Part shown: positions 17,356-50,961 of the stretch, piece after piece | Layout: each line of letters starts with the position of its first letter | How positions within the stretch are numbered: position 1 is the stretch's first letter | Source: an uncultured Mycoplasmatota bacterium | GTDB lineage: Bacteria > Bacillota_I > Bacilli_A > RF39 > UBA660 | Direction of reading: 5' to 3' | NCBI GenBank assembly: GCA_900542735.1 | Contig: UQOS01000001.1 | Span: forward strand, 50,865 to 114,864 | Length of the DNA: 64,000 nucleotides | The notes under the pieces: generated by a model | Databases searched by the model: none | The model's input: only the letters and a program-made list of their open reading frames with translations | What the model was told of the DNA's origin: nothing | Translations under genes and position numbers: made by a program

Positions 17356-18996
17356 ATGAAACAAATAAAAGAAACGAGTATTTTTTTATTAATGCTAATG
17401 GCAAATATTTTAATAGGAACAACTTTACTATTTTTTTGTAAAATAACGATTACGCCATTTCATTTACCTGGATTTATTTTATTAACTAGTCTATTTTATT
17501 TCTTTTTAAGAAGAAAAGTAACTAAGAAAGAAATTCTAACAACAATCATTTTATCTCTTTTAATAGTATCTCTATCTACTTTAATTTCTAGTTTTATGTT
17601 TGATAGATCAAGTGATGGAAATACTTATCATAAAGACGCAATTGGAGTATTAAAAGAAGGTTTTAATCCTGTATATGAATCTAGTGTTAAACAAATTAAA
17701 AAAAGACAAGATGACAGTAAAACACTAACAAACTATAGTATTTGGACAGACCATTATGCAAAAGCAAATTGGATTATTGCTGCTAATTTCTATAGTCTAA
17801 CAAACAATATTGAATCTGGAAAAGCTATGAATCTAATTAGTATGTATCTTGTGTTTGGATTTATTTTTACTTCATTATCTACTTGTATGACTACGAAAAA
17901 AGCTATGATACTTGCTCTTATTACTGTACTTAATCCTATTACAGCTTCGCAAGTTTTTACTTACTATAATGATCAATTAGTATGTATGTATCTTTTCTTA
18001 GCTATCTTATTTTTAATAAAACTAGATAAAAATATAAATGATAAAAACAGTTGGTTTTATTACTTTCTTACTTTTATTATTTTAGCGAATATGAAGTTTA
18101 ACGGATTAGGTTACTTATTAGTATTTAGTTTCTTCTTTGTTTGCAAGTATTTATTTAAGGCCTATAAAAACAAAAACTTTTTTCAAATATTTAAAAAATT
18201 ATGTATAATATTTATTCCTTTATTTATAACATCTCTTTTGATAGTAGGGTATCCTACCTATATAAAAAATACTATTGATCATAATAATCCATTCTTCCCA
18301 TTATACGATAAAAATGGTGAAGATATTATTACTGCTCAACAACCTAAAAAGTTTTTAAAAATGAATAATTTAGAAAAACTATTCTATGCAACATTCTCAA
18401 AAACAAACAATCTAAGAGAAAATGATAATACCGATTTAAAACTTCCATTTACGGTTTATAAAAGTGAACTAACACCAGCTATGAGTAACGATTTAAGAAT
18501 TAGTGGTTGGGGAATATTTTATAGTGGATTATTACTATGTAGTATCATTATCTTTATTAAGTATTATAAACAATATAAAAAAGAAACATCTATTTTGTAT
18601 ACCCTAATAATTACTATTTTCTTACTACTTATTATGAGTGAATCATGGTGGGCTAGATATACACCACACTTTTATTTATTTATAATTTTATCACTTTATA
18701 TTCTTTTTAAATATGAAAAGAAGAACTTAATATCTAATATTTATGTAGCTATTATTTTAATAAATACTTTAATACCATTTATGGGAAATAGTTATTATAC
18801 TTTAAAAAATAGTATTCAAATTCATAAAGAATTAAAAAGTTTATCAAATACCGAAATCAAACTAAATGTAAATGGTATGAATGGTATTATTTATAACTTA
18901 AAGGACTATCATGTTACTTATCATATTATGAAAGAAAATGGAAAAAAAGAATTATACTATCACTATTTAACATATCAAGGAGAAGAAGATGAATAA
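17356..18996 (+). CDS. Polytopic membrane protein, probable polysaccharide-modifying or glycosyltransferase-like (GT-C-like) protein
   Basis: 546 aa with more than 10 predicted TM helices. First gene of the polysaccharide locus. No soluble catalytic domain. Confidence 0.45.
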   Translation: MKQIKETSIFLLMLMANILIGTTLLFFCKITITPFHLPGFILLTSLFYFFLRRKVTKKEILTTIILSLLIVSLSTLISSFMFDRSSDGNTYHKDAIGVLKEGFNPVYESSVKQIKKRQDDSKTLTNYSIWTDHYAKANWIIAANFYSLTNNIESGKAMNLISMYLVFGFIFTSLSTCMTTKKAMILALITVLNPITASQVFTYYNDQLVCMYLFLAILFLIKLDKNINDKNSWFYYFLTFIILANMKFNGLGYLLVFSFFFVCKYLFKAYKNKNFFQIFKKLCIIFIPLFITSLLIVGYPTYIKNTIDHNNPFFPLYDKNGEDIITAQQPKKFLKMNNLEKLFYATFSKTNNLRENDNTDLKLPFTVYKSELTPAMSNDLRISGWGIFYSGLLLCSIIIFIKYYKQYKKETSILYTLIITIFLLLIMSESWWARYTPHFYLFIILSLYILFKYEKKNLISNIYVAIILINTLIPFMGNSYYTLKNSIQIHKELKSLSNTEIKLNVNGMNGIIYNLKDYHVTYHIMKENGKKELYYHYLTYQGEEDE

Positions 18997-20179
18997 AAAA
19001 CTAAATTTACTCATAATTATCTTTTTATTATTAGGACCTATTTTAGATGTAACTAGTTTTTTAGGATTACCATATAGTATTTTAGTAAGAAGTATCTTTT
19101 TAATTGGTATTATTTTATATTTATTATGGTATAAGAAAAGTTTAAAGTTGTTAATTCCTTTATTAGCTTTTGGTCTAGTTAATTTACTATATCAGTACCT
19201 CTATTTAAAAAGTGGTATGGTTACTTCTATTTCAGCTTGTTTAAAATTTTTATATTTACCAGTATCTATCTTATTTTTTAATGCTTGCCAGGTAGATACT
19301 AATAAAGATAAATTATTATTAACGGTTTTAATTACTTATTTAAGTATTTATTTATTATCTTATGTATTTAAAATAGGAGCAGATGCTTACTTACCAACAG
19401 ATGGCAAAAGCGGCTTTAAAGGTTTATTTTCATCAATTAATGAATTTAGTGCAATTATTGTGGGACTATTACCCATATCTTTAACCTATCTAAAGAAGAA
19501 AGAAAAATGGTTACTTTTTACTTTCGTTTTACTAGCTAGTATTGGTAGCAGTTTATTAATTGGAACTAAAGTTTTAATGGGTGGTATATTGTTTACTGTT
19601 TTCTATTTACTATATCAAGAAAGAGATAAGTTATTTTTTAAAAAATCTAAAAAAGGTAAAATCATGATAATAGGTATTTTGATTATTTCTATCATATGTG
19701 GCTCTATTTTATTTACGAAAACTAGAACCTATCAAAATATGGTAATCCAAAATAGTTTCTTTAAAGTAGATAAAATTTTATCGTTAGACTTTGTGAATAA
19801 AGTAATATATAATGATCGTTTAAGTTTTTTAAGTGATAATTATCAGTATTTTAAAAGTCAAAATATAATAAAAATATTATTTGGAATTGGATTAACTGAT
19901 AATAAAGTAAAAATGGTAGAAATAGATATTTTTGATATTATTTTTCGCTATGGCGTGATAGGTTTTATTACTTTTATAATTCCTATTATCTCATCTATTA
20001 AGTGGAAAAACATAAGAAAAGTTGATAAAATATCATTGTTACTATTTTTGATAATTTCTCTAACATCTGGTCATGTATTAATTTATCCAGCTGTTAGTAT
20101 TTATATAGCGTTCATTCAAAAAGAAGAAATTGAAGTAGGTGATAAATTTGAAAACAGGAATCGTAATTATTCATTATAA
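18989..20179 (+). CDS. Polytopic membrane protein, O-antigen ligase/polymerase (Wzy/WaaL)-like
   Basis: 396 aa with 10-12 TM helices and a larger loop near the C-terminal third, as in Wzy_C proteins. Overlaps the upstream and downstream genes in operon fashion. Confidence 0.45.
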   Translation: MNKKLNLLIIIFLLLGPILDVTSFLGLPYSILVRSIFLIGIILYLLWYKKSLKLLIPLLAFGLVNLLYQYLYLKSGMVTSISACLKFLYLPVSILFFNACQVDTNKDKLLLTVLITYLSIYLLSYVFKIGADAYLPTDGKSGFKGLFSSINEFSAIIVGLLPISLTYLKKKEKWLLFTFVLLASIGSSLLIGTKVLMGGILFTVFYLLYQERDKLFFKKSKKGKIMIIGILIISIICGSILFTKTRTYQNMVIQNSFFKVDKILSLDFVNKVIYNDRLSFLSDNYQYFKSQNIIKILFGIGLTDNKVKMVEIDIFDIIFRYGVIGFITFIIPIISSIKWKNIRKVDKISLLLFLIISLTSGHVLIYPAVSIYIAFIQKEEIEVGDKFENRNRNYSL

Positions 20180-21029
20180 TGATCTTGAATCATTGAAACA
20201 TTTAGTAGAAAATGTAGAAAACTATCATGTAATATCTAAAATTGTGATTGTAGATAATAATTCAAGAAAAGATGTAAAAAAGAGTCTTAGACTAATAACT
20301 GGTAAAAAAATAAAGTTAATTGAAAATAAAAAGAATTTTGGTTTTGCTAAAGCTATTAATATTGGATGTAAATACTTGATAAAAGAACTAGGTCCATGTA
20401 ATTTAATTATTTCTAATAGTGATGTTATTATTGATAAAGAAGAAGATTTAAAAGCTCTAATAAAAGAATTAAATAAAAAATCAGTAGGAGTAGTAGCACC
20501 AACTATTGTAGAAAATAAGCATTTAAATCGTGGTTGGAAAAATCCTAGTCCTTTCTTAGATAGTATGTTAAATTTGATTTATGTGCATCGTTTCTTTAGA
20601 AAAAAATATGTGTTTTATAAAGAGGAACATTATGATAGTAGAACTAGTTTAGTAGATGTTGTGAGTGGTTGTTTCTTTATAATGAAATCCAGAACATTAG
20701 AAAGAATTGGTTATTTAGATGAACATACTTTTCTTTATTATGAAGAAAATATTCTAGCAAAAAAGATTCATAATGAGAAATTATATATTGAAGTATGTAA
20801 TGATATTCTAATTATTCATAATCATTCGGTATCTATTGATAAAAATGTAAAAAAGATAAATAAGTTGAAACTTCAAAAGGAAAGTCAGTATTATTTTCAA
20901 ACAACTTATAATCATGCAAATCTATGGGAAAAAATGTTACTAAAGACAACTGCTTTTTGTAGTAGAATGATTTTAGCAGTAGTATATTTTTTGAAAGATT
21001 TGATAGGAGTAAAGAAAAAAGATAAATAG
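20139..21029 (+). CDS. Family 2 glycosyltransferase (rhamnosyltransferase-like)
   Basis: GIVIIHYNDLESL...IVIVDNNS and downstream NSDVII are GT2 (GT-A) DxD-type motifs. The track start is GTG at 20139; a TTG at 20148 has a better RBS. Confidence 0.7.
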   Translation: MINLKTGIVIIHYNDLESLKHLVENVENYHVISKIVIVDNNSRKDVKKSLRLITGKKIKLIENKKNFGFAKAINIGCKYLIKELGPCNLIISNSDVIIDKEEDLKALIKELNKKSVGVVAPTIVENKHLNRGWKNPSPFLDSMLNLIYVHRFFRKKYVFYKEEHYDSRTSLVDVVSGCFFIMKSRTLERIGYLDEHTFLYYEENILAKKIHNEKLYIEVCNDILIIHNHSVSIDKNVKKINKLKLQKESQYYFQTTYNHANLWEKMLLKTTAFCSRMILAVVYFLKDLIGVKKKDK

Positions 21030-21293: not shown

Positions 21294-22181
21294 ATGAAAA
21301 AAGAGGAGAAAATCAATTATAAAATTGAAAGTGATGTTCTTAAAAATTATGTAGAAGCTATTAATTCAATAAAGGAACCCATGAGACAAATTAAGGATCA
21401 ACTTCATCAACTAACAATGCCAATGCAAGAACTAGATAAATCATTTAATGAATCTATGAAGCCAATCATTGAAGCAAGTAAAGCCGCTTCTAGGCCATTT
21501 AAATCAATTCAAAAAGAACTAAAAAGCATTAATACTATGTCTAATGTAATTAAGGAACTATCGATTAAATATCCAAACAACCAGTCAAAAATATTTATAG
21601 ATACTATAAAGCAAATAATGAATACCAATAATGGAATGCTTTCTACAAGAATGATAGAACCACTAAATATAAGCAGACAATATCTCTCAATTATGGAAAA
21701 TAATAATGAAATTGAAAAAGTTTCAAGAGGTATATATCTTTCACCAAGTGCTTTTGAGGATAGTTATTTTTCCTTCCAACAAAAATATAAAAAGGCTATT
21801 TTCTCACATATGAATGCCCTATATTTTTACGGTATGACTGAGGAATTTCCATATAACTATACAGTAACTGTTCCACAAAACTATCATGTTGATACAGTAA
21901 ATGAAAAATGTAATGTATTTTATGTTTCAGATGATATATATGAAATAGGTGTCGTTGAAGTTGAAACTCCAAGTGGAAATAAAGTTAGAGCTTATGACAA
22001 AGAAAGATGTATTTGCGATATCATAAGATCAAAAGGTAGAATGGATCCTGAACAAGTAAAAAAATCTATTAAACAATATATTCAAAGTAAAGATAAAAAT
22101 GTAGCAAAGCTATATGATTATGCAAAGAGAATGGGAATAAGTGAAAAAGTAATGGAAATGGTAGGCATATATTATGAGTAA
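21294..22181 (+). CDS. abiEi: AbiEi-family antitoxin/transcriptional regulator (type IV TA/abortive infection), copy 1, with an N-terminal extension of about 90 aa
   Basis: The C-terminal 200 aa align convincingly with the 62150..62776 protein (for example EIGVVEVETPSGNKVRAYDKERCICDIIRSKGRMDPEQVKKSIKQY versus ELGLIQIDTPMGNKVKAYDMERCICDIIRSKNRMDSEHVKHSIREY). It lies upstream of, and overlaps, an AbiEii-type nucleotidyltransferase gene. Confidence 0.75.
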   Translation: MKKEEKINYKIESDVLKNYVEAINSIKEPMRQIKDQLHQLTMPMQELDKSFNESMKPIIEASKAASRPFKSIQKELKSINTMSNVIKELSIKYPNNQSKIFIDTIKQIMNTNNGMLSTRMIEPLNISRQYLSIMENNNEIEKVSRGIYLSPSAFEDSYFSFQQKYKKAIFSHMNALYFYGMTEEFPYNYTVTVPQNYHVDTVNEKCNVFYVSDDIYEIGVVEVETPSGNKVRAYDKERCICDIIRSKGRMDPEQVKKSIKQYIQSKDKNVAKLYDYAKRMGISEKVMEMVGIYYE

Positions 22182-23016
22182 TTCTATCCAAGCAGTAAAG
22201 GATAAACTTAGAAATATTTCTAGAGAAAAAAATATAGATTTTAACTCTGTTATGAGATTTTATATGTATGATAGGTTTGTTGAACGCCTATCGAAAAGTA
22301 AATATAAAGATAATTTTATATTAAAAGGTGGCTTTTATTTGAGTAAATTATTCGGATTAGATAATAGAAGCACTATGGATATTGATACTGCAATAAGAAA
22401 AACAAATCTATCTTTAGAAAATGTTATTAAAATGATAACAGAAATTATTAATATAGATGTAGATGATAACGTAAAATTTGAAATTGAAAAAACAGAATCA
22501 ATTCGTGATGAAGATGAGTATGGTGGATTAAGAATTACGATAAAATTTACGTTAGAAAATATGAAAGATAGTTTTCACATTGATATAGCTACTGGTGATC
22601 CAATACATCCAGGACCAGATGATTATAAATATGAATCACTAATAGGAAATGATATATATAAGGTATGGTCATATAATTTGGAAACTATATTAGCTGAAAA
22701 AATAGAAACTATACTTAGCAAGTTAGAAGCAAGCAGTAGAATGAAAGATTACTATGATATTTATTTAATCCATAGGTTTAAATTTAATAAAATAAATAAA
22801 ACTAAATTTAGAGGCGCAGTAGAGAAAACTTTTGAAAAAAGAGAATTTAATGCAGATCTAATTGCAAGTTTAAATGTAGTTAAAGATAGTAAGATATTAA
22901 GAGATAAATGGGTAAGCTATTCTAGGAAAAATAGTTATGCTAGAAATTTGGAATTTGATGAAACTATAAAATGTTTAGAAGACTTTATAGAAATATTAAT
23001 ACCGGTAGAAGTATAA
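22174..23016 (+). CDS. abiEii: AbiEii/AbiGii-family nucleotidyltransferase toxin, copy 1
   Basis: LRNISREKNIDFNSVMRFYMYDRFVERLSKSKYKDNFILKGGFYLSKLFGLDNRSTMDIDTA is the AbiEii N-terminal nucleotidyltransferase signature (GG...DxD). The start ATGAGTAA overlaps the upstream stop. Confidence 0.8.
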   Translation: MSNSIQAVKDKLRNISREKNIDFNSVMRFYMYDRFVERLSKSKYKDNFILKGGFYLSKLFGLDNRSTMDIDTAIRKTNLSLENVIKMITEIINIDVDDNVKFEIEKTESIRDEDEYGGLRITIKFTLENMKDSFHIDIATGDPIHPGPDDYKYESLIGNDIYKVWSYNLETILAEKIETILSKLEASSRMKDYYDIYLIHRFKFNKINKTKFRGAVEKTFEKREFNADLIASLNVVKDSKILRDKWVSYSRKNSYARNLEFDETIKCLEDFIEILIPVEV

Positions 23017-23304
23017 GAGGTTTGAATGAGTATATAAGAATAACATATTGTACAACAAAAATAATTTCATATTTATCAGATTAAACACAATCGATAAGAA
23101 TGGGGCTTTTATAAATTTTAAAATAGAACAAGTTGAAAAAAAGATATTTTTTTTAGCACTTGAGTTGTATTAGTTTTGGTCGACAAATACATTAAACTTT
23201 TGTGCTTTTTTTCTAAATTAAAATGTGATGCTTTTTAATTATTTGATAATTCAAGACTTTTCGTTAGAAATTTGGTACAATTATCGCATAAGGTAGTGAT
23301 TGGG

Positions 23305-24093
23305 ATGAAAATTCTAAATAAAAAGTATTTTGAATCAATGAAAAAATATAGAGATGATAATAATTTACAGAATGAATTAACTGATGATGATTGTATTTGC
23401 TATGCAAATATGTTTTCAGTTTATTTTGAAATTACAGATAAAAAATATTCGTTTGATGAAATGTTTCAAACTTATGATTTTATAACAGATGTAATCGATG
23501 GATTAAGGCCTGATATAATGATTGAATTAAATGATAAGTATAGGGATATTTATAGATTATTAAGAAGATATTCTATAACAAAAAATTTAGATAAAGAAAC
23601 AAGAAAAAAATTAGCATTTTTAATATATCAAGCTAAATGCATAATTATTATGGATGAAGAAACTATGGAACCTACTTGGAATATGGGATTATTTGAAAAA
23701 GGAACAAATAATTTTCTTGAAGAATATGAATATGAATTAAAAGAATATCCAGAAACATACGAAATAAAAGAAACATTGTCTGACATTACGAGTGATGATT
23801 TTGGATTAACTGCTAATAATCCAATTGAATTAATATCTGTAGGAGCACAATATCAGTATTTAAATATATTATTAACTGATGATGGAAAAGATATTTTGTA
23901 TGAAAGAGTGGGAACAGTTACACATAGCGATGGTGAAACTATAATTGATGTATATAATATTTATAGCAAAAAAAAATTAGGAAAGAAAAAAATTGCTACT
24001 TTATATATTTCTGGATATGGATATGAAAATACTGTAATTGCTCCAAAAGGCTTTAGATTTATGACAGATGAAGAATTTAAAAATAGACATTAA
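23305..24093 (+). CDS. Hypothetical cytoplasmic protein, acidic, no recognisable domain; downstream of AbiE pair 1
   Basis: ORF of 262 aa from ATG 23305. No TM segment and no known motif. Distinct, even lower-GC composition. Confidence 0.45.
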   Translation: MKILNKKYFESMKKYRDDNNLQNELTDDDCICYANMFSVYFEITDKKYSFDEMFQTYDFITDVIDGLRPDIMIELNDKYRDIYRLLRRYSITKNLDKETRKKLAFLIYQAKCIIIMDEETMEPTWNMGLFEKGTNNFLEEYEYELKEYPETYEIKETLSDITSDDFGLTANNPIELISVGAQYQYLNILLTDDGKDILYERVGTVTHSDGETIIDVYNIYSKKKLGKKKIATLYISGYGYENTVIAPKGFRFMTDEEFKNRH

Positions 24094-24328: not shown

Positions 24329-25210
24329 ATGAAAGGAATTATATTAGCAGGAGGTTCAGGAACTAGACTTTATCCAATAACAGAAGGAATTAGTAAACAG
24401 TTAATACCAATTTATGATAAACCGATGATTTATTATCCTTTATCAACATTGATGTTAGCAGGAATTAAAGATATTTTATTAATTACTACAGAGCAAGATC
24501 AAGCTGGATTTAAAAGATTATTTGGAACAGGAAAGCAATTTGGATTAAATATTGATTATGTGATTCAACCATCACCTGATGGACTAGCACAAGCTTTTAC
24601 TTTAGGAAAAGATTTTATTGGAAATGATACTTGTGCAATGATACTTGGAGATAATATTTTTTATGGTAATGATTTAGTTAAAAAATTAAGCACAGCTAGA
24701 AAAAATGCTGAGGACGGATATGCTACTATTTTTGGTTATCAAGTAAAAGATCCTGAAAGATTTGGAATTATGGAAATTGATGAGAATAAAAAAGTAATTT
24801 CTGTAGAAGAAAAACCGCAAAAGCCAAAAAGTGATTTTGCGATAACTGGATTATATTTTTATGATAATAGAGTTGTAGATAAAGCATTTAAGGTGGAAAA
24901 ATCTGCTCGAGGAGAGTATGAAATAACAGATTTAAATAGAATGTACTTAGAGGAAAACAAATTGAAAGCTGAACTTTTAGGTGGAGGATATGCTTGGTTT
25001 GATACAGGACTTACAGATAGTTTATTAGATGCAAGTAATACTATTAAAACTCTTCAAAACATAAGAGGCTCTATTATTAGTTGTCCAGAACAAATTGCTT
25101 ATAAAAATGGTTGGTTATCAGATAGCCAATTATTAGAGCGTGCTGAATTAATGAAGAAAAATGAATATGGAAAATATTTAATGAAAACATATGAAAAAGG
25201 TAGAAAATAG
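24329..25210 (+). CDS. rfbA: Glucose-1-phosphate thymidylyltransferase
   Basis: [18 protein letters not shown]...[17 protein letters not shown] is the canonical RmlA N-terminus. 293 aa. Confidence 0.9.
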
Positions 25211-25233: not shown

Positions 25234-26370
25234 ATGAAAAAAAGTGAACTATATACAATAATTATAACGAATTATAATAATAGTAAATATCTTAAAAATG
25301 CAATAAATTCAGTCCTAAATCAAAAATATAATAATATTGAATTAATAATTACTGATGATAATTCAACAGAGTTTAATCTAGAAAATATAAAAAAATATAT
25401 TGAAAAGAAAAAGAAAAAAAATATTAAAAGTGTAAAATATGTAATTAATGATAAAAATATTGGTACTATTAAAACTTTAAATAAAGCTATAAAATTATCA
25501 AGTGGTGAATATATACAATTTTTTGCTTCTGATGATGAATTGTATGATGAAAATGTAATAGAAAATTTTGTTTCTAGTTTTAAAAAAAGCAATAATAATA
25601 TAGTATCATCTCAATTTAGATTATGTGATAATAATATGAAATTTATCAATAATTTTAATAATTCCAGAAAATGTTTAAGGTTAAATAAAAATTTAAAAAA
25701 GCAATATTATGAAGTATGTAAAAATAATATTTATGGTTCAGGTGCTACAAGTTATAGAAGAATAATATTTGAAAAATATGGTTTAATTGATACGAAATAT
25801 CTTTTATTAGAGGATTGGCCATTGTGGCTACAGTTATTAAATAAAGGCGAGAAAATATTCTATGAAAATTTTAATGGCTTGAATCATAGAGATGGTGGAA
25901 TTAGCAAAACTAAAGAAATGAGTAAGATAACCAAAGTGTTTAATGAAGAAATAATCAATACATTTATTTACGAAATATTACCTAATATAATAAATTTTAA
26001 TGTTTATGAGCAGTTTAAAATTTTAAAATCTTTTAATTACCACATCGATAATTATGTACCAGAAAATGAAAGAGTTAATTATATAAATAAATTAAACAGA
26101 ATAATTAATAGCAATATGAAATTAAAATTGCTTTGGGGGATTGATCATTACTTTCCTAATATAATTGAAAAGATAATAATTCTATTTAAATATAATATAA
26201 TCGTTCCCATATCCTTTTTAGTTGCATATATTTTTATCTTTATACTAATTAATATTATTGATATTAATAAAGATTTATTATTGATCATATTCCTAGGAAT
26301 TTACTTTTTTCTTTATGTAACTATGAATATAATTAGTAATTTCATTAAAATAAAAAAAGGCGGGGTTTAG
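25234..26370 (+). CDS. Family 2 glycosyltransferase with a C-terminal membrane-anchor region (paralog of the next gene)
   Basis: TIIITNYNNSKYLKNAINSVLNQKYNNIELIITDDNS is a GT2 motif. Shared HRDGGIS motif and hydrophobic C-terminus. Confidence 0.7.
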   Translation: MKKSELYTIIITNYNNSKYLKNAINSVLNQKYNNIELIITDDNSTEFNLENIKKYIEKKKKKNIKSVKYVINDKNIGTIKTLNKAIKLSSGEYIQFFASDDELYDENVIENFVSSFKKSNNNIVSSQFRLCDNNMKFINNFNNSRKCLRLNKNLKKQYYEVCKNNIYGSGATSYRRIIFEKYGLIDTKYLLLEDWPLWLQLLNKGEKIFYENFNGLNHRDGGISKTKEMSKITKVFNEEIINTFIYEILPNIINFNVYEQFKILKSFNYHIDNYVPENERVNYINKLNRIINSNMKLKLLWGIDHYFPNIIEKIIILFKYNIIVPISFLVAYIFIFILINIIDINKDLLLIIFLGIYFFLYVTMNIISNFIKIKKGGV

Positions 26371-27711
26371 ATGGAAAAATTCTCATTAATTATTACTCAT
26401 TATAATCAAATGAAATATATAAAAGAGGCAATATTATCAGTTCTTAATCAAAATTACAAAAATATTGAAATAATTGTTTCAGATGATCATTCTAAAGAGT
26501 TCGATAAAGATAAAATTGAAGAAATATTTAAAAAATATAATAAAAAAAAGTTTGAATATAAAATATATCAAGGTAAAGCTAATTATGGGACGGTAAAGAG
26601 TTTAAACAATGCGTTATCGCTTGCTACTGGTGAATATATTCTGTTTTTTGCTGCAGATGATAAATTAGCTAATGAATCTGTTATTAGCAATTTCGTTAAT
26701 GAGTTTAAAGATAAAAATAAGAATATTGTTACTTCACAATGTGGATTATATGATCATGATCTAAAGGTAAAATATGGTTGTTATGTTAATGCAAAAAATG
26801 CATTAGATTTAAATAAAAAAAATAGTATGGCCGTTTATGAAAAAACATGTGAAGGTTGTTTTTATGGAGCTGGTGGAACAGCATACAGAAAAAATATTTT
26901 TGAAAAATATGGAAAATTCAATGAAAAATATAAATATGTAGAAGATTGGTCATATTGGTTGTATGTAACAAGAAGTGGAGAAATGATATATTATGCAGAT
27001 TTTGATTCACTATGTCACAGAGATGGTGGTATAAGTCACAGTGTTTTTGCTCCTGAAACTGTGCCACCACACATAAAACAATATTATAGAGATATTTTAA
27101 ATATATATATTGATCAGATTTTGCCATATGTAAATAATTTTACAACAAAAGAAAAGTATAGAATTATGAGACAATTTAATGAAACAATTTTATATTATTC
27201 ATATTTTGTTCCGGAATTAAGTTCCTATTTAAAAGACTTTGATAACGCAAGAATAAATGATAAAAAGCTTAAATATTATTGGAAAATACAGACATTAAAA
27301 AAGATATTAAAAAAATCTTTTAATTTAAATTTACTTAATAAACTTAGAGTGTTATTTATCTATAACAAGCCAGTAATAGTATCAATGTGTTATTGGTTAT
27401 CAATTTGTTACTTTTATATTAATAAAATTGAAAATTTAAACAATAATTTGTTATTATTAATATATACTTGTTTATATGTATTAATATATGTTTTAGCTTA
27501 TTTTATTGACAAAGTATCATACAGGTTAAAAACAAAGCATTTATATAAAATACTGGTATGGATTTTATTAAATATAGTGTCAATAAATGCTTTTAAGATA
27601 AGTAATGATAATGTATTTCTACTATTAATTTTAAACTATTTCATTACACATATATTTTTATATTTATTATCTGGAGTCTTAAAATTTATTAGACTTTATA
27701 GAAGAAGATAG
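26371..27711 (+). CDS. Family 2 glycosyltransferase with a C-terminal polytopic membrane region (paralog of the previous gene)
   Basis: SLIITHYNQMKYIKEAILSVLNQNYKNIEIIVSDDHS, CHRDGGISH, and a C-terminal hydrophobic domain of about 120 aa. Confidence 0.7.
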   Translation: MEKFSLIITHYNQMKYIKEAILSVLNQNYKNIEIIVSDDHSKEFDKDKIEEIFKKYNKKKFEYKIYQGKANYGTVKSLNNALSLATGEYILFFAADDKLANESVISNFVNEFKDKNKNIVTSQCGLYDHDLKVKYGCYVNAKNALDLNKKNSMAVYEKTCEGCFYGAGGTAYRKNIFEKYGKFNEKYKYVEDWSYWLYVTRSGEMIYYADFDSLCHRDGGISHSVFAPETVPPHIKQYYRDILNIYIDQILPYVNNFTTKEKYRIMRQFNETILYYSYFVPELSSYLKDFDNARINDKKLKYYWKIQTLKKILKKSFNLNLLNKLRVLFIYNKPVIVSMCYWLSICYFYINKIENLNNNLLLLIYTCLYVLIYVLAYFIDKVSYRLKTKHLYKILVWILLNIVSINAFKISNDNVFLLLILNYFITHIFLYLLSGVLKFIRLYRRR

Positions 27712-27793
27712 CATATTGTCGATAGAAAACTGCTAAATAATTGCATTTTTCTATCAAATAATGTAGAATATTATGTTATATAGGGAGGTTTTT

Positions 27794-28534
27794 ATGGAAG
27801 AAAATAAAACATTTATTCACCCAACTGCGTTAGTTTATCCAAATGTTGAATTTGGAGATAATGTATATGTTGGGCCATATTGTATTGTTGGGGAGCCAAC
27901 ATTTGGCTATTATAAAAATGCAGAAAATCATGAGTTTAAAAAAACAATAATTGGATCAAATGCAATTTTAAGAGCAAACACAATAATTTATGAGGGTTGT
28001 CAAATTGGAGAAAATTTTCAAACAGGACATCATGTTACAATAAGAGAAGATAGTATTATTGGAAAGAATTGTTCCGTTGGTACATTAGGAGATATACAGG
28101 GAAAAGTAAAAATAGGAGACTTTGTCCGTTTACATTCAAATGTACATATTGGTCAATTTACGGAAATAGGCAATTATGTATGGATGTTTCCATATTCTAT
28201 AACTACAAATGATTTATATCCTCCAATGGATAGATTAACTGGCTGTAAAATAGGCGATTATTCATTAATAACAACAGGTGCTATTCTTTTGCCAGGTGTT
28301 GTTATTGGCGAAAATTGTATGGTTGCAGCAGGGGCTGTTGTAAGTAAAAATGTTGAAGATGGAAAAGTTGTAATGGGTGTTCCAGCTAGGGAAAGAGGAT
28401 ACATAGAAGATATTTTAGATGAAAATGGAAATCATATTTACCCTTGGCCTCAATACCTTGAAGAAGATAGAGGTTATCCTTGGCAAAATGACAAACAAAA
28501 AACAAAAGTAATGGGAAGTTATAAAGAAAAATAG
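27794..28534 (+). CDS. Left-handed beta-helix (hexapeptide) sugar N-acyltransferase, FdtC/QdtC-like
   Basis: Repetitive hexapeptide pattern ([LIV]-G-x-x-x-x-I), for example VGPYCIVGEPTFG..IGSNAILRANTIIYEGCQIGENFQTGHHVTIRE. Located with fdtA/fdtB-like genes. RBS AGGGAGG upstream of the ATG at 27794. Confidence 0.6.
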   Translation: MEENKTFIHPTALVYPNVEFGDNVYVGPYCIVGEPTFGYYKNAENHEFKKTIIGSNAILRANTIIYEGCQIGENFQTGHHVTIREDSIIGKNCSVGTLGDIQGKVKIGDFVRLHSNVHIGQFTEIGNYVWMFPYSITTNDLYPPMDRLTGCKIGDYSLITTGAILLPGVVIGENCMVAAGAVVSKNVEDGKVVMGVPARERGYIEDILDENGNHIYPWPQYLEEDRGYPWQNDKQKTKVMGSYKEK

Positions 28535-28543
28535 GTGATAGAA

Positions 28544-28975
28544 ATGTATAATAGTGGCTTGTTTAAATTTAGAAAAATTAGTTCACCAACTAATCCTAAT
28601 TTAGGAAATTTAACTCCAATTGAAATACCAGGTGATATTCCTTTTGAAGTAAAAAGAATGTATTATATTTATGGTGTTGGACAATCTGAAGTAAGGGGAA
28701 ATCATTCTCATAAAAAATTACATCAAGTATTAATTTGCCTAAATGGCAGTATAGATGTAAGATTAGAAAATTTTTTTGGAGAAGAAAAATATACATTAAA
28801 TGATCCATCTGTTGGATTATATGTTGGACCAGATAACTGGAGAGAAATGTCAAATTTCAGTGATAATAGTGTATTACTAGTCTTAGCATCAGCACCATAT
28901 GATGAAAACGATTACATAAGGGACTATGATGAATTCGTTTCATTTAATCAAAAAAAATATGGGGGTAAAAAATAA
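28544..28975 (+). CDS. dTDP-4-dehydro-6-deoxyglucose 3,4-ketoisomerase (FdtA/WxcM C-terminal domain-like cupin)
   Basis: About 140-aa cupin with [19 protein letters not shown], matching the RG.HAHKK.EQ FdtA motif. Sits between an acyltransferase and a DegT aminotransferase. Confidence 0.7.
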
Positions 28976-30166: not shown

Positions 30167-30489
30167 ATAATTAATTATTGATTACCTGGACAGGTTTAAT
30201 AATACCTGAGTATATGTTAATTTGGTAACCTATAGTTTTAAATTTTGAGTGTGAGAAGTTATAATTATTAGTTATAACTATTAAAAGAAGATTATAGAAA
30301 TTAGTATAGAGAAAAGTATTATAATGAAAATGAAACTATTAATAGTATGAAACTATTAAATACTATATTTAAAATGTTAAAAAATGGACCGATGATATTA
30401 TAAGATAAAAAAGTAGTAAACATAAGTGTTTTATCTATAATATTAAATATGATATAATGAAGATGTATAGAATAGGAGGAAGTGATTTG

Positions 30490-37896: not shown

Positions 37897-37914
37897 TAAA
37901 AAGTAGGAGTGAGA

Positions 37915-38682: not shown

Positions 38683-38696
38683 TAATAGGGGGTATT

Positions 38697-39743
38697 ATGA
38701 AAAAAGAAGTAAAACTTAGTATTATTGTACCATGTTATAAAGTAGAAAAATATTTGCCAAGATGCTTAGACTCATTGTTGAATCAGACTTTAGAAGAAAT
38801 TGAAGTAATATGTATAAATGATGGTTCTCCAGATAATTGTTTAAAAATATTAAAAGAATACCAAAAGAAATATTCTTCCAAATTGGTAATCATTGATAAA
38901 AAGAATGAAGGCGTTTGGCGTGGAAGAAAAGATGGTATCAAGAAAGCAAAAGGAGAATTTATAGGATTCGTAGATAGCGATGATTATGTAGCACTAGATT
39001 TTGCAGAAAAATTATATAATGCTGCTAAGAAAAATCATGCTGATATTTCAGTATGTGGATTTGATAGAATTGATTTAGAGACTGGAAAGTTATATTCAAG
39101 AGAAATGTGTTACCCAGAAACTAAAATTATTGAAATGAATAAAAATCCAGAAGACGTACTGATGATAAATGGTGCACCATGGAATAAAATATATAAGGCA
39201 AATTTATTAAAAAAAATGGCAGAACTTAAACACCCACCTAGAATATTAGATGATATGATGTTTTTACTTTTGATCTATATCAATGCAAATAAAATTACTT
39301 TTATTCCAGATAGTTTAGTTTATTATATGGTAAGAACAGATTCTATTATTAATACCATAAGAAAAGAACAAGTAGAATCAACATATTTAGCTATGACTGA
39401 AGTAAGAAGAGTCTATGAAAATAGTGATCGTCGTGTAACAATGTTACCAGTTTTAGATTCTATGGCTTTTCTTCATTTGGGGATTTCTCTAATGTTTAGA
39501 CTTTCTAATGATAAAGAATGTAATTTAAAAGAAGCAATAAGAACAAATAATAAGTTTTTAGACGATTGGTTTCCTACTTGGAGATATAGTAAATTTATTA
39601 AATTATCTTATATGTTTAAACATGGATTTAATAATTTAAAAATATGGATTGTTAAAATGTGTTATAAATTTCATTTGTTTAGAGCCTTCTTAAAAGTTTA
39701 CAATTTTATGATTACAAAATTAAAAATCGATATAAAATGGTAG
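38697..39743 (+). CDS. Family 2 glycosyltransferase
   Basis: LSIIVPCYKVEKYLPRCLDSLLNQTLEEIEVICINDGSPDN and GFVDSDD are GT2 motifs. Confidence 0.7.
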   Translation: MKKEVKLSIIVPCYKVEKYLPRCLDSLLNQTLEEIEVICINDGSPDNCLKILKEYQKKYSSKLVIIDKKNEGVWRGRKDGIKKAKGEFIGFVDSDDYVALDFAEKLYNAAKKNHADISVCGFDRIDLETGKLYSREMCYPETKIIEMNKNPEDVLMINGAPWNKIYKANLLKKMAELKHPPRILDDMMFLLLIYINANKITFIPDSLVYYMVRTDSIINTIRKEQVESTYLAMTEVRRVYENSDRRVTMLPVLDSMAFLHLGISLMFRLSNDKECNLKEAIRTNNKFLDDWFPTWRYSKFIKLSYMFKHGFNNLKIWIVKMCYKFHLFRAFLKVYNFMITKLKIDIKW

Positions 39744-49070: not shown

Positions 49071-49979
49071 ATGATATTAATAACATTAGGAACTCAAGAT
49101 AAAGAGTTTACAAGAATTTTAAAAGAAGTAGACAAATTAATTACCAAAAAAGTAATTAAAGAAGAAGTAGTAGTACAAGCGGGATATACTAAATATAAAT
49201 CAAAGAACATGAAAATATTTGACTATGTTTCAAAAACGGAATTAGAAAAATACATAGAAAAAGCAAGCTTTGTGATTACTCATGCTGGTGTTGGTACTAT
49301 TTTTGATTGCTTAAAGAAAAATAAAAAAATAATAGCCGTTCCAAGACTTTCAAAATATAAAGAACACAATAATGATCATCAACTACAAATAGTAGAAGAA
49401 TTTGGAAAAGAAGGTTTTTTAATACCAGTTTATGAAATGGACGAATTAGAACAAGCTATTCAAAAAGTAAAAACCTTTAAACCCAATAAATATAAAAGTA
49501 ATAATAAAAATATGGTAAAGTTAATTAGTGAGTATATAGATAGGAATGAAAAAAGAAGTATGATAAAAACTATAAAAGAATTATTTAATAAATATCGTGA
49601 AATCATTATGTATTTAATTTTTGGCGTACTAACAACTGTAGTTAGCTTAGCTGTTTATTACATATTAGTATATACCGTTTTAAATCCCAATAATCCATTT
49701 GAACTTCAAGTAGCCAATATTATTTCTTGGATAGCAGGAGTTACTTTTGCTTATTTCACAAACCGTAGTATGGTATTTCAAAGTAAAAATAAAAATAAAC
49801 TAAAAGAAGCTGGAAGTTTTGTTTTAGCAAGAATAGTTACTCTTATTATGGATATGTTAATTATGTTTGTTGGTGTAACCCTATTACATGGAAATGATAA
49901 ACTATTAAAATTAATTTCCCAAGTAATCGTAATAGTGTCTAATTATGTATTTTCCAAACTGTTTGTGTTTAAAAAATAA
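49071..49979 (+). CDS. Alg13-like glycosyltransferase catalytic subunit (EpsF/Cps14F/PssE-like) fused to a C-terminal GtrA-like 4-TM domain
   Basis: MILITLGTQDKEF...ITHAGVGTIFDC (MurG C-terminal-like). The C-terminal YLIFGVLTTVVSLAVYYIL...WIAGVTFAYFTNRSMVF resembles GtrA-family membrane proteins. RBS AGGAG upstream of the ATG at 49071. Confidence 0.65.
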   Translation: MILITLGTQDKEFTRILKEVDKLITKKVIKEEVVVQAGYTKYKSKNMKIFDYVSKTELEKYIEKASFVITHAGVGTIFDCLKKNKKIIAVPRLSKYKEHNNDHQLQIVEEFGKEGFLIPVYEMDELEQAIQKVKTFKPNKYKSNNKNMVKLISEYIDRNEKRSMIKTIKELFNKYREIIMYLIFGVLTTVVSLAVYYILVYTVLNPNNPFELQVANIISWIAGVTFAYFTNRSMVFQSKNKNKLKEAGSFVLARIVTLIMDMLIMFVGVTLLHGNDKLLKLISQVIVIVSNYVFSKLFVFKK

Positions 49980-50016
49980 GAATAATATGCTAAACTATCA
50001 TCAAGAAGGTGTAATT

Positions 50017-50961
50017 ATGAAAAAAATTTCAATTGTGGTACCATGTTATAATGAAGAAGAATCATTACCACTATTTTATAAAGAAGTAAATAAAGTTACC
50101 GAAAAAATGAAAGCAAAAGCTGAATTTGAATTTGTTTTTGTCAATGATGGCTCTAAAGATAATACTTTGGAAGAATTAAGAAATTTAGCTAAAAAAGATA
50201 AAAGAGTAAGATATATTTCTTTTTCTAGAAATTTTGGAAAAGAAGCAGGAATGCTTGCTGGACTTGAAAATGCAACAGGAGATTATATCACGACAATGGA
50301 TGCTGATTTACAGGATCCACCTACTTTATTAGAGGAAATGTTTGATACATTAGAATCTGGTGAATATGATTGCTGTGCTACGAAAAGTACCAACCGTAAA
50401 GGTTATTCTTTCTTAAGAAAGACATTTACAAAATGGTTTTATGATATCATTGGTAAAATTTCTAAAACAGAAATGGTACCAGGAGCTAGAGATTTTAGAT
50501 TAATGACTAGACAAATGGTAGACGCTATTATTTCTATGAGAGAATATAATAGATATTCAAAAGGTCTATTTAGCTTTGTTGGTTTTAAAACAAAATGGAT
50601 TGATTTTGAAATAGAAGACCGTGCAGCTGGTACTTCGAAATTTAATTTTTGGAAATTATTTTCTTATGCAATTGAAGGAATTGTAGCCTTTTCTACTGCA
50701 CCACTTGTATTTGCAGCTTTAGTAGGTGTTATCTTTTGTTTTATAGCTTTCATATTAATCATTTTCATCATTGTGAAGACATTAGTATGGGGTGATCCTG
50801 TTGGTGGTTGGCCTAGTATGGCATGTATCATGTTCTTTGTAGGAGGAATTCAATTATTCTGTACTGGTATCATTGGAGAATATCTAGCAAAAACCTACTT
50901 AGAAACAAAACATAGACCAGTTTATATTGTGAAAGAAACAGAAAAAGATTTAAAAAAGTAG
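50017..50961 (+). CDS. GtrB-like family 2 glycosyltransferase with C-terminal TM helices (polyprenyl-phosphate sugar synthase)
   Basis: ISIVVPCYNEEESL...FVNDGSKDNT, TMDADLQDP, and two C-terminal TM helices. Paralog of 39803..40771. RBS AAGGTG upstream of the ATG at 50017. Confidence 0.7.
   Translation: MKKISIVVPCYNEEESLPLFYKEVNKVTEKMKAKAEFEFVFVNDGSKDNTLEELRNLAKKDKRVRYISFSRNFGKEAGMLAGLENATGDYITTMDADLQDPPTLLEEMFDTLESGEYDCCATKSTNRKGYSFLRKTFTKWFYDIIGKISKTEMVPGARDFRLMTRQMVDAIISMREYNRYSKGLFSFVGFKTKWIDFEIEDRAAGTSKFNFWKLFSYAIEGIVAFSTAPLVFAALVGVIFCFIAFILIIFIIVKTLVWGDPVGGWPSMACIMFFVGGIQLFCTGIIGEYLAKTYLETKHRPVYIVKETEKDLKK

Follow-up and report, generated by a model that had tools for sequence, protein, structure and literature searches.

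From its gene content, the stretch between 17356 and 50961 of the window (the whole 64,000-nt stretch of DNA that was analysed, from an uncultured gut member of class Bacilli with ~25% GC) is probably a cell-envelope glycopolymer locus, following the plan of the rhamnose-rich cell-wall polysaccharides of streptococci, lactococci and enterococci. Gene content, family and fold assignments, synteny and cassette-level variability of this chromosomal locus were established computationally, with ORFs, Pfam and NCBIfam for gene assignment, hydropathy for TM counts and PADLOC for defence genes. It encodes a Wzt/Wzm ABC glycan exporter, nine GT2, one GT4 and one dual GT4 protein, together with a split Alg14/Alg13 transferase, RfbA, GalE and three lipid-phosphate-sugar modules. 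All genes named in a first-pass annotation were present, intact and correctly placed, the GtrB-like genes included. Its "at least ten GT2" came down to nine Pfam GT2 proteins (20139, 25234, 26371, 32010, 36461, 37909, 38697, 39803 and 49945) and its two GT4 to one stand-alone enzyme (47443), and its dual GT-B enzyme was found as the dual GT4 at 32812-35043.

Conserved exporter core and mosaic middle

The exporter and the candidate backbone enzymes form a four-gene core:

30457-31242, + strand, Wzt/TagH-like ATPase, 261 aa (PF00005)
31235-32026, + strand, Wzm ABC-2 permease (PF01061)
32010..35043, + strand, rhamnosyltransferase-like GT2 and a 743-aa protein with two GT4 domains

This block was kept in all 18 related species loci wherever the contig extends there, in line with the earlier reading as an ABC-exporter glycan locus. 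Amino acid identity was 50-100% in the 17 closest of the 18 species-level loci (58-100% for Wzt/Wzm across related loci), and all flanking genes varied. The recurrent order in the relatives' map is core, then DUF2142, GacI-like, DUF2304, flippase and GT2 genes, and in one relative (L018) the core lies directly downstream of rmlA, an rmlC::rmlD fusion and rmlB, which links it to rhamnose. Wzt scored 226 bits as TagH-like and 191 bits as galactan Wzt, all below the NCBIfam equivalog cutoffs. GT2 32010 matched TIGR01556 at 119 bits against a cutoff of 200, and two Glycos_transf_1 stretches (Pfam) make up the dual GT4; the core GTs reached no curated functional cutoff in NCBIfam and had no solved relatives by sequence. 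The two are candidates for adaptor and backbone polymerase, which would build the backbone on the cytoplasmic side, starting from an undecaprenyl-diphosphate primer, Wzm/Wzt then carrying it out. Here and below, every enzymatic step is predicted from the genes, as are the sugars, the acceptor and any link to peptidoglycan.

Set beside E. coli O9a WbdA/Wzm/Wzt, streptococcal RgpA-F, mycobacterial galactan Wzm/Wzt and the Geobacillus S-layer glycan, the locus resembles ABC-dependent systems in that the Wzm/Wzt pair adjoins a multidomain polymerase-like GT and an adaptor-like GT2, with nucleotide-sugar genes alongside. It differs in that Wzt carries no C-terminal carbohydrate-binding domain and that the window yielded no chain terminator, initiating enzyme or ligase. 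The 64-kb window contains no initiating phosphoglycosyltransferase (WecA/TagO/WbaP type), LCP ligase or rmlB/C/D, so the pathway is incomplete as seen; nor does any TagB/TagF/TagD family occur anywhere in it, as first reported. From this the first-pass annotation took a likely neutral backbone, and it also raised a phage-receptor role for the region; both are conjectural.

The region had been called variable, which holds for its mosaic middle, whereas the locus ends and the four-gene core are conserved among relatives. Strain-level variability was confirmed, since siblings with ~99% identical flanks differ by whole cassettes, as at the following site:

30176..30456, no strand, intergenic cassette site, with the sibling insertion after window position 30175

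There, sibling loci L028-L035 carry an extra 3.68 kb encoding GtrC-like GT_STM0557_N (584 aa), GtrB-type GT2 (313 aa) and GtrA (143 aa) proteins between the aminotransferase terminator and Wzt. The insertion has a clean junction that lacks long direct repeats, the Wzt protein is identical to that of the window, and the flanking DNA is ~99% identical in L028 and L029, those compared. In L037 and L041 (98-99% identical shared flanks) a 131-aa GtrA stands in place of window 38656-39778, the second GT2 (38697), and the strains with this GT2f/GtrA swap also have a different upstream block; an AAA_14 insertion is a further strain-level difference. Nothing points to carriage by phages: the window contains no integrase or tRNA, and the cassette gave only a 10% hit against a phage collection. 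Another species keeps the frame of PASTA, GT-C, WaaL-like and GT2, then adhesin, sortase, GT4, Alg14, Alg13::GtrA, GtrB2 and NUDIX, around a different middle, and in L054 the middle and right arm are absent.

Three lipid-phosphate-sugar modules

The first-pass annotation had proposed three modules of Und-P-sugar synthase, flippase and GT-C. Synteny in relatives supports all three, with the corrections that module I is not a Gtr triad and that module II, in this strain, lacks its own flippase gene. Each route would make an undecaprenyl-monophosphate sugar that crosses the membrane and is transferred by a GT-C outside the cell. Module I comprises:

35027..36451, + strand, DUF2142 polytopic protein, the module I GT-C (PF09913, 185 bits; ~10 TM helices)
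36461 (36476), + strand, GacI/PpgS-like soluble GT2, 242 aa, no TM helix
37191, + strand, DUF2304, GacJ-like activator, 116 aa (PF10066, 71.5 bits)
37543 to 37896, + strand, 4-TM EamA/ArnF-like small membrane protein, 117 aa (EamA 30.3 bits, ArnF 21.8 bits), candidate flippase

Judged by its sequences, module I (35027-37896) is a four-component system of the GacIJKL/WpsAB-J type, in which a putative small flippase replaces Wzx; the literature models are GacI/J/K/L (10.1101/180810) and the WpsA/B...J and three-/four-component systems (PMC9574508). We compared it with GacI/GacJ/GacK/GacL of S. pyogenes, WpsA/WpsB...WpsG/WpsJ of L. lactis and PpgS/Rv3632 of M. tuberculosis. As in Gac/Wps, a soluble GtrB-related GT2 adjoins a DUF2304 small membrane protein and then a flippase gene, a polytopic GT-C is present, and the module lies directly beside the ABC-transporter backbone block. 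Its GT-C is DUF2142, as are WpsJ/WpsI (in lactococcal and streptococcal loci, GT-Cs of the WpsJ/WpsI type are DUF2142 proteins; PMC12599335, PMC9746298), and extra GT2 genes follow, as do WpsC-F in L. lactis. In contrast, the flippase slot holds the 117-aa 4-TM protein and not a 12-TM Wzx, and more distant relatives (L020, L022, L027) have a 408-410-aa polytopic protein there, with 10-14 TM helices and, in L027, a weak Polysacc_synt match (E 1.4e-3). The GacI-like protein also stays below all curated NCBIfam cutoffs (PpgS 85 bits, AglJ 82 bits), and rmlBCD lie outside the locus. In the proposed route, the GacI-like GT2, DUF2304 activator, EamA-like flippase and DUF2142 GT-C would act together.

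Module II adjoins an adhesin operon:

39803..41766, + strand, GtrB1 (Und-P-hexose synthase type, two C-terminal TM helices) and GalE
41868..43382, - strand, PMT_2-family GT-C, 504 aa (PF13231, 36.8 bits; ~9 TM helices)
43563-45677, + strand, thioester-domain/SpaA-fold surface protein, 704 aa (PF17802, PF08341)
45664-46221, + strand, sortase (PF04203)

GtrB1 matched Synechocystis GtrB (5EKP) over its full length at 209 bits; in NCBIfam it scored 248 bits as PgfS-like (cutoff 500) and 146 bits as ArnC-like. The PMT_2 protein, which has an NDWVDVN motif after TM1, is to be regarded, we infer, as the partner of GtrB1; PMT_2-family GT-Cs directly precede GtrB1 orthologues in L018 and L025, and GtrA adjoins GtrB1 in L025, L037 and L041. 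GtrB1, fed by GalE, and the PMT_2 GT-C would work with a borrowed flippase; in L. lactis three GT-A/GT-C pairs are served by one GtrA-type flippase (PMC8035078).

GtrB1, GalE and the PMT_2 protein, perhaps with the GT4, might instead perform Pgf-like O-glycosylation, Und-P-Gal(NAc) being made inside and transferred by the GT-C outside, so that part of the machinery would modify the adjacent adhesin or other envelope proteins and not polysaccharide. The set of GtrB-type synthase, epimerase and GT-C, with genes for a sortase-anchored adhesin nearby, resembles pgfS-pgfM1-pgfE-pgfM2 of S. mutans, a cluster next to the adhesin genes cnm/cnaB/cbpA that puts GalNAc on surface/membrane proteins (PMC11092751). 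PgfS is the best NCBIfam match of both GtrB1 and GtrB2, galE directly follows gtrB1 and overlaps its end, the PMT_2 and adhesin genes are divergently oriented, other species (L012, L057) keep adhesin and sortase in the same position, and PMT-family members of other lineages are protein O-mannosyltransferases. We nevertheless hold this to be improbable, as the PgfS scores fall far below the 500-bit equivalog cutoff, the GT-C is PMT_2 and not of the YfhO type of PgfM1/M2 and PgtC2, and L012 has GtrB1-GalE-adhesin without a PMT_2 gene between. Moreover, neither the adhesin, which ends in a sorting signal (FPNTL, hydrophobic stretch, then KRKK), nor any other window ORF contains a Ser/Thr-rich disordered stretch, the S+T maximum being 43% in 30 residues, with its peak in a spurious antisense ORF.

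Module III is split between the conserved left (17356-21029) and right (47443-50961) arms:

17356..18996, + strand, polytopic membrane protein, 546 aa, GT-C fold
18989..20179, + strand, O-antigen-ligase-like membrane protein (WaaL/Wzy_C fold)
20139..21029, + strand, GT2a, last gene of the left arm (PF00535, 57.6 bits)
47443, + strand, GT4 (Pfam/NCBIfam)
48590-49060, + strand, Alg14-like subunit (PssD/Cps14F), 180 bits
49041-49979, + strand, Alg13-like subunit (PssE/Cps14G) fused to a GtrA domain
49945..50961, + strand, GtrB2 (Und-P-hexose synthase type, two C-terminal TM helices; true start likely 50017)

GtrB2 matched 5EKP at 249 bits over its full length and PgfS at 312 bits (cutoff 500). 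GT-C 17356 is the proposed extracytoplasmic transferase of a route comprising GtrB2 and the fused GtrA domain; 31 kb separates it from GtrB2, so the two are not "near" each other as had been stated. The L053 locus has them in a contiguous GtrA-GtrB-GT-C triad (71%, 81% and 61% identity to the window's GtrA domain, GtrB2 and GT-C 17356), its GtrA being free-standing. Both PF04101 and PF04138 were present in all of the at least 120 homologue clusters listed for the Alg13::GtrA fusion (64-99% identity), and about 12 of the best 150 representatives (50% clustering) matched over the full length. GT2a matched TIGR01556 weakly (51 bits, cutoff 200), and its L054 orthologue is 52% identical and in the same position.

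Compared with GtrA/GtrB/GtrC of Shigella and Salmonella phages, Gram-positive CsbB/GtcA/YfhO and CsdAB/CflA of L. lactis, the window shares two full-length GtrB homologues, a GtrA-family domain and GT-C-fold partners; sibling strains have a textbook GtrC(STM0557-type)-GtrB-GtrA cassette and relatives have contiguous triads. Unlike Gtr, the window's GtrA forms one protein with an Alg13-like half-transferase, one pair is without its own flippase and one triad is split.

Nucleotide-sugar genes and cytoplasmic transferases

RfbA and GalE, both named initially, score above their NCBIfam cutoffs (GalE by TIGR01179, 432 bits). The remaining sugar genes are:

24329..25210, + strand, RfbA/RmlA, glucose-1-phosphate thymidylyltransferase (TIGR01207, 443 bits, cutoff 361)
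25234..27711, + strand, tandem paralogous GT2 pair, 378 and 446 aa (PF00535, ~90 bits each)
27773..30126, + strand, QdtC-like N-acetyltransferase, QdtA-like 3,4-ketoisomerase and QdtB-like aminotransferase
37909..39743, + strand, two GT2 enzymes, 257 and 348 aa (PF00535, 94.7 and 127 bits)

The best solved relatives of all three Qdt-like enzymes belong to the dTDP-Quip3NAc pathway of Thermoanaerobacterium thermosaccharolyticum (QdtC 3fs8, 178 bits; QdtA 4o9e, 149 bits, above FdtA at 120 bits; QdtB 3frk, 449 bits). The isomerase has Arg (GPDNWREM) at the FdtA His95 position, the signature of C-4-retaining isomerases (PMC2943079), and RmlA is present as in that pathway; in contrast, RmlB is absent from the window, and the order is qdtC-qdtA-qdtB, after two GT2 genes. 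We infer a dTDP-3-acetamido-3,6-dideoxy-D-glucose (Qui3NAc) branch, in which RfbA, the three Qdt-like enzymes and an RmlB encoded elsewhere would supply dTDP-Qui3NAc. GT2 genes 25234 and 26371 (67% nucleotide identity) encode proteins with C-terminal TM helices that are TuaG/EpsE/PglI-like and not GtrB-like (NCBIfam), candidate cytoplasmic side-chain transferases; with 37909, 38697, 47443 and Alg14/Alg13 they may add strain-specific sugars. The Qdt-like set, the WaaL-fold protein and the sortase-anchored adhesin with its sortase were absent from the first-pass annotation.

WaaL-fold protein, conserved arms and embedded defence genes

The WaaL-fold protein, the embedded adhesin and the sortase lie outside what the classical cell-wall polysaccharide model explains. 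Protein 18989, beside GT-C 17356, may ligate or polymerise a diphosphate-linked glycan. It could also, in place of an LCP enzyme, move the polymer from Und-PP to protein, in the manner of S-layer glycans (WsaB/WsfB), or to a membrane glycolipid, the product being a glycoprotein or lipoglycan. In Geobacillus and Paenibacillus, S-layer glycans that depend on an ABC transporter are completed by O-oligosaccharyltransferases with a Wzy_C domain (PMC2943079), the QdtA/B/C matches belong to an S-layer glycan pathway, and the window has no LCP gene. Such a transfer is unlikely, however: L054 has the WaaL-like gene with GT-C and GT2 neighbours and no adjacent ABC-exporter locus, so this gene is not tied to the exporter; L054 and L056 have an LCP gene at a distance of 5-9 kb from the WaaL/GT-C/GT2 block; the window showed no protein of the S-layer or SLH-domain kind; and ligase, polymerase and oligosaccharyltransferase cannot be told apart by fold alone.

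A somewhat stronger, still doubtful possibility is that the 34 kb hold two or more independent glycan systems in a shared recombination-prone chromosomal slot, one comprising modules I and II and the ABC-exported polymer, the other the conserved arms (GT-C 17356, WaaL-like, GT2a and GT4, Alg14/Alg13::GtrA, GtrB2). The left arm occurs alone in L054 and the GtrA-GtrB-GT-C triad alone in L053, across species the arms stay and the middle is exchanged, and defence genes and the adhesin operon separate the blocks. Against this, known Gram-positive loci for one polymer likewise have some parts conserved and others variable (PMC9574508, PMC9746298), almost every gene here runs in the same direction with short gaps between (ORFs), and Pfam found neither a second exporter nor a Wzx flippase in the window. 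A single glycopolymer locus remains our preferred reading.

Three further entries lie among the glycan genes:

21294..23016, + strand, AbiEi/AbiEii toxin-antitoxin (abortive-infection) pair (Pfam AbiEii, 141.6 bits)
23272..24093, + strand, 273-aa protein, present in sibling contigs
46244..47260, + strand, DUF1016/YhcG PD-(D/E)XK nuclease (PF06250, 203 bits)

The 273-aa protein had no match in Pfam, NCBIfam or PADLOC. PADLOC scored AbiEi at 213 and AbiEii at 315 bits, and a 12/12 promoter-like site lies upstream of the pair at 21229-21257. The nuclease, a candidate defence gene, was assigned by PADLOC to candidate family PDC-S02 at 435 bits.

Gene content and the predicted dTDP-sugar branch

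Gene content suggests that the locus at 17356–50961 would work as do Gram-positive wall polysaccharide loci of the Gac/Rgp/Cwps/Epa class, including their multi-component transmembrane glycosylation. We mapped it from Pfam, NCBIfam and hydropathy, transmembrane (TM) helices being counted by a simple script; family scans with Pfam, NCBIfam and PADLOC took in the major non-nested ORFs of the window. GC content was ~25% across the whole window with no compositional break at the locus. The 33 large ORFs in 17356–50961 all lie on the + strand except one, mostly overlapping or separated by a few bases. Promoter and terminator scans were uninformative in DNA of 25% GC, where promoter-like sites were fewer than in shuffles, and a promoter-like site at AbiE was the only standout of the promoter scan.

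Genes of the locus (start coordinate, strand, assignment)
17356, +, 546-aa protein with 9 TM helices and no family match (Pfam, NCBIfam, hydropathy)
18989, +, O-antigen-ligase-like protein
20139, +, GT2
21294 and 22174, +, AbiEi and AbiEii
23272, +, unassigned protein
24329, +, RfbA (above equivalog cutoff)
25234 and 26371, +, paralogous GT2 pair with C-terminal TM helices
27773, 28535 and 28975, +, hexapeptide acetyltransferase, FdtA-family isomerase and DegT aminotransferase
30457 and 31235, +, Wzt/TagH-like ATPase and ABC-2 permease
32010, +, GT2, rhamnosyltransferase-like (below cutoff)
32812, +, double GT4, 743 aa
35027, +, DUF2142
36461, +, soluble GT2, 242 aa, PpgS/AglJ-like
37191, +, DUF2304
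37543, +, EamA/ArnF-like, 117 aa, 4 TM helices
37909 and 38697, +, two GT2
39803, +, GtrB-like (GtrB1)
40768, +, GalE (above cutoff)
41868, −, PMT_2
43563, +, thioester/SpaA surface protein
45664, +, sortase
46244, +, DUF1016 nuclease
47443, +, GT4
48590, +, Alg14-like (PssD/Cps14F)
49041, +, Alg13-like (PssE/Cps14G) fused to GtrA
49945, +, GtrB-like (GtrB2)

The gene list of the first-pass annotation was correct apart from two miscounts, with nine GT2 proteins found in place of at least ten and one stand-alone GT4 in place of two. It had also left out several genes, among them the adhesin (43563) with its sortase (45664) and a sugar branch at 27773, 28535 and 28975. The best solved relatives of this branch were Thermoanaerobacterium QdtC (178 bits), QdtA (149 bits; FdtA, 120 bits) and QdtB (449 bits), respectively. 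The isomerase 28535 carries Arg at the position of FdtA His95, a mark of C-4-retaining enzymes (PMC2943079), and on this signature and the better score an FdtA (Fuc3NAc) identity was dropped in favor of QdtA (Qui3NAc). The predicted product is dTDP-3-acetamido-3,6-dideoxy-D-glucose. RmlA, QdtA, QdtB and QdtC make up four of the five dTDP-Quip3NAc enzymes, the family scans of the window's ORFs found no RmlB, the maker of the Qdt substrate, and GalE was rejected as a hidden RmlB (432 bits as GalE versus 116 bits as RmlB).

We infer each step of the proposed route from such assignments, with the Rha-CWPS systems reviewed in PMC9574508 as the model. The GT2 32010 and the bifunctional 32812 would build a backbone on Und-PP in the cytoplasm, which Wzm/Wzt would export; Leloir glycosyltransferases would attach cytoplasmic side chains from dTDP-Qui3NAc and UDP-sugars, and three modules would add sugars outside the membrane from Und-P-sugar donors. 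The locus thus predicts an ABC-exported polymer with Qui3NAc and up to three extracytoplasmic decorations, in an uncultured low-GC gut Bacilli lineage for whose envelope glycans we know of no experimental work.

The exporter core and its surroundings in relatives

The adjacent ABC-2 permease and ATPase form a Wzm/Wzt-TagG/TagH-type pair and stand with putative polymerizing glycosyltransferases in a four-gene block kept in relatives; Wzt has no carbohydrate-binding extension. This Wzt–Wzm–GT2 (32010)–dual GT4 core alone was conserved across 18 species-level loci, with both flanks differing, and in the 17 closest of them its identity was 50–100% as far as the contigs, mostly of MAG or metagenome origin, extended. 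The GT2 32010 scored 119 bits against a rhamnosyltransferase model with a cutoff of 200, and rmlA was the only rml gene in the window. In the related locus L018, rmlA, a fused rmlC::rmlD and rmlB precede the core, the sole hint that the backbone may contain rhamnose. The fusion itself (L018, 458–1897) is a single 479-aa protein joining RmlC (dTDP_sugar_isom) to RmlD (RmlD_sub_bind), directly upstream of RmlB and the core.

An initiating transferase (WecA/TagO/WbaP; PF00953, PF02397) was not detected among the ORFs of the 64-kb window and may be encoded elsewhere, as is rgpG in streptococci. Neither an LCP ligase nor rmlBCD was found in the 64 kb; the related loci L054 and L056 have LCP and LtaS genes 5–9 kb leftward of their PASTA gene. 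The earlier statement that tagB, tagF and tagD were missing held, with no TagB/TagF-type transferase or TagD/TarI cytidylyltransferase family in any ORF scanned with Pfam and NCBIfam. An exact-protein look-up of the dual GT4 returned no match, which probably reflects start-codon choice, as proteins of 722–738 aa are called in other assemblies. No useful match came from searching the PDB with the sequences of DUF2142, the dual GT4 or GT2 32010.

The relatives are labelled only “uncultured Bacilli” or Candidatus (Allo)scybalousia, Bacilli incertae sedis, and Candidatus (Allo)scybalousia intestinigallinarum is among them; of the GTDB representatives, a Hadza-gut MAG comes nearest. One 231-kb contig (L056 and L057), from another species, has the same locus frame, but the ~25 kb inside it differ. 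This frame runs PASTA (−), GT-C, WaaL-like, GT2 on the left, SpaA, sortase, DUF1016, GT4, Alg14, Alg13::GtrA, GtrB2, NUDIX on the right, and then NAGPA and PFOR. In L054, the left arm was followed by two small unrelated genes (thioredoxin, metallo-beta-lactamase) and then by NUDIX–NAGPA–PFOR, and the equivalent of window 21.3–51.0 kb was absent. The arms stand alone in L053 and L054, as they might if two or more independent pathways occupied one variable slot, a reading that we consider unlikely, if worth keeping in mind.

Within the species, contigs were 98.5–99.6% identical to the window at the nucleotide level, yet their cassettes differed. Sibling strains L028–L035 carried an extra 3.68-kb cassette of STM0557-type GtrC, GtrB and GtrA at window 30175/30176, just after the aminotransferase terminator and with clean junctions. 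In two others (L037 and L041) a GtrA gene replaced 38656–39778, which encodes a GT2, and the L037 contig, reaching further upstream, had a different DUF2142 and GT2 there, together with a 691-aa protein. An AAA_14/DUF4143 gene lay between GalE and PMT_2 in L038. A mobile-element origin was considered for the variable region and for the extra Gtr cassette, and rejected: no tRNA was found, the cassette junction lacks long direct repeats, the ORFs include no integrase or transposase family, and a phage collection yielded just one 384-bp match at 66%. The first-pass annotation had described the locus as variable. Since all three lipid-phosphate-sugar synthases are intact and the cassettes differ, the comparison revealed neither pseudogenes nor an invariant syntenic locus, and conservation lay in the ends and the four-gene core. 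Cassette swaps at about 99% identity, together with abortive-infection and nuclease genes, form the pattern expected of a phage-receptor or antigenic-variation hotspot, and the natural presence/absence variants are useful for metagenomic phage–host studies. Outside the locus, a 1.3-kb segment at 51645–52973 (a 90-aa ORF and a GNAT acetyltransferase) was absent from L038 and L040, which are otherwise >99% identical.

Putative modules of extracytoplasmic glycosylation

GtrB1 (39803) and GtrB2 (50017 in the gene listed at 49945) matched Synechocystis GtrB (5EKP) over their full length with 209 and 249 bits, ArnC being next best, and each has two C-terminal TM helices; the DADLQD motif is intact. 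The third synthase, 36461, has no TM helix, and the DUF2304 gene 37191 (PF10066, 71.5 bits) starts 1 bp past its stop, the same arrangement as in GacI/GacJ of S. pyogenes and PpgS/Rv3632 of M. tuberculosis; in those pairs the synthase is stimulated by its small partner (10.1101/180810). The C-terminal TM helices of 25234 and 26371 made them candidates for further GtrB-like synthases; they were rejected on profile matches of the TuaG/EpsE/PglI type.

By Pfam, two proteins belong to GT-C families, PMT_2 (41868) and the DUF2142 protein 35027 (185 bits, about 10 TM helices), which is part of Module I (35027, 36461, 37191, 37543) and shares its family with lactococcal WpsJ/WpsI (PMC12599335, PMC9746298). 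The 17356 protein is unannotated, yet belongs to a well-conserved family, and its AlphaFold model from 24 homologues (pLDDT 82, pTM 0.85) confirms, at the level of fold, the GT-C-like nature first proposed for it. The neighboring 18989 protein belongs by fold to the WaaL/Wzy_C superfamily, and its extracytoplasmic loops carry the conserved Arg and His; a PDB sequence search with it gave a spurious ND4L match only. Such a WaaL-fold protein might possibly move the exported glycan onto protein or lipid, a transfer that occurs in S-layer glycosylation (PMC2943079), but the WaaL-fold gene is also present without the exporter locus.

Synteny alone suggests how synthases pair with GT-C proteins in the modules. 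The parts of Module III (GtrB2, the GtrA domain of 49041 and GT-C 17356) lie 31 kb apart in the window, and Module II (GtrB1, GalE and PMT_2) has no flippase of its own in this strain. The window's one GtrA domain (PF04138, 84 bits) forms the C-terminal half of the Alg13-like protein; no free-standing GtrA was found there, and GtrA genes do occur in sibling strains. In L053, a 17356 orthologue (61% identity) is located immediately downstream of free-standing GtrA and GtrB, which are 71% and 81% identical to the GtrA half of 49041 and to 50017, respectively; this GtrA–GtrB–GT-C set is a canonical contiguous triad. In L018 and L025, PMT_2 proteins of 550 and 557 aa directly precede the GtrB1 orthologues (75–76%), with a GtrA following in L025, and a 131-aa GtrA stands immediately upstream of GtrB1 in L037 and L041, where the window has the GT2 38697. 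No significant pairwise similarity was found between the PMT_2 proteins of the window and L025, so what links them is only a shared Pfam family and position. Flippase sharing by Module II is plausible, since three GT-A/GT-C pairs of L. lactis depend on one GtrA-type flippase (PMC8035078). The triads proposed in the first-pass annotation thus found contiguous orthologues for Module III and a GtrB1–PMT_2 adjacency for Module II in relatives; in the window itself the genes are not adjacent. The public-contig Pfam annotation of PMT_2 (41868–43382, −) adds PF27757 (Competence-induced Ccs4, N-terminal); pneumococcal Ccs4 has no known function (PMC6177246).

The GtrB1–GalE–PMT_2 set also resembles S. 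mutans pgfS/pgfE/pgfM beside cnm (PMC11092751) and may instead, with low probability, serve Pgf-like protein O-glycosylation, with the neighboring adhesin as its target. However, its GT-C is PMT_2 and not YfhO-type, the PgfS scores of 248 (GtrB1) and 312 bits (GtrB2) fall below the equivalog cutoff of 500, no protein of the window has a Ser/Thr-rich region, and L012 carries GtrB1–GalE–adhesin without the PMT_2 gene.

In most relatives, Module I follows the core in the order DUF2142, GacI-like, DUF2304 and a flippase-slot gene. This slot holds the 4-TM EamA-like protein in the closer relatives L010, L013 and L016, and a 408–410-aa protein with 10–14 TM helices in L020, L022 and L027 (a weak Polysacc_synt match in L027 only). 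In the window it is a 117-aa, 4-TM EamA-like protein, not a 12-TM Wzx. We read this distribution as a probable non-orthologous replacement in which a small DMT/SMR-like protein took over from a Wzx-type flippase; the small protein would be functionally comparable to ArnE/ArnF, its ArnF match here being just 21.8 bits.

Each of the 120 homologue clusters listed, the lowest at 64% identity, kept both domains of the Alg13::GtrA protein; among the best 150 representatives at 50% clustering, about a dozen were full-length fusions and the others matched one half. Hydropathy showed no TM helix in its Alg14-like partner, 48590. The 4-TM protein in the GacI/J-type flippase slot and the conserved Alg13::GtrA fusion are two departures from the known class, whose functional readings are putative and which offer testable variations on multi-component glycosylation.

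Both departures could belong to a more elaborate scheme, to which we give little credence. The arms would form a side-chain assembly line, a “dual-chain” route like that of lactococcal PSP built from Gtr parts: GtrB2 would prime Und-P-hexose, the lipid-acceptor-specific Alg14/Alg13 and GT4 would lengthen the product on the monophosphate carrier, GtrA fused to Alg13 would couple extension to flipping, and outside the membrane GT-C 17356 and the WaaL-fold protein would transfer or polymerize the product. In parallel, the EamA/ArnEF-like 4-TM protein would represent a third class of flippase for Und-P-sugars among the Gram-positive multi-component systems, having displaced the Wzx that stands at the same position in relatives.

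Surface protein, defence-type genes and neighboring ORFs

The surface protein 43563 combines a thioester domain and SpaA domains with a signal peptide and, at its C-terminus, a sorting signal whose FPNTL motif is unusual. This signal (45560–45677) consists of EFPNTLS, a hydrophobic stretch and KRKK and is non-canonical for the sortase next to it, whose own scores reach the cutoff of no sortase class.

Defence-type genes are interspersed in the locus: PADLOC recognized AbiE (213 and 315 bits), and the DUF1016 nuclease matches the candidate family PDC-S02. Directly after the AbiE pair, a 273-aa ORF (23272–24093) is kept in sibling contigs and has no Pfam, NCBIfam or PADLOC match. Two further ORFs (307 and 631 aa) at 1376–4289 have no Pfam match, and a Fic/RhuM-type protein at 4778–5722 (−) falls in the PADLOC candidate defence family PDC-S23 (407 bits). 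A second AbiEi/AbiEii pair, at 62150–63605, shares about 70% nucleotide identity with the one at 21294–23016.

Divergently adjoining the GT-C/WaaL-like block, at 15695–17191 (−), is a gene for a membrane protein of 498 aa, whose 3 TM helices are N-terminal and which has four PASTA domains but neither a kinase nor a transpeptidase domain; L054 and L056 keep this adjacency. On the other side of the locus, a NAGPA-family phosphodiester glycosidase (54885–55949), which could act on phosphodiester-linked wall glycans, is conserved beside pyruvate:ferredoxin oxidoreductase in relatives.
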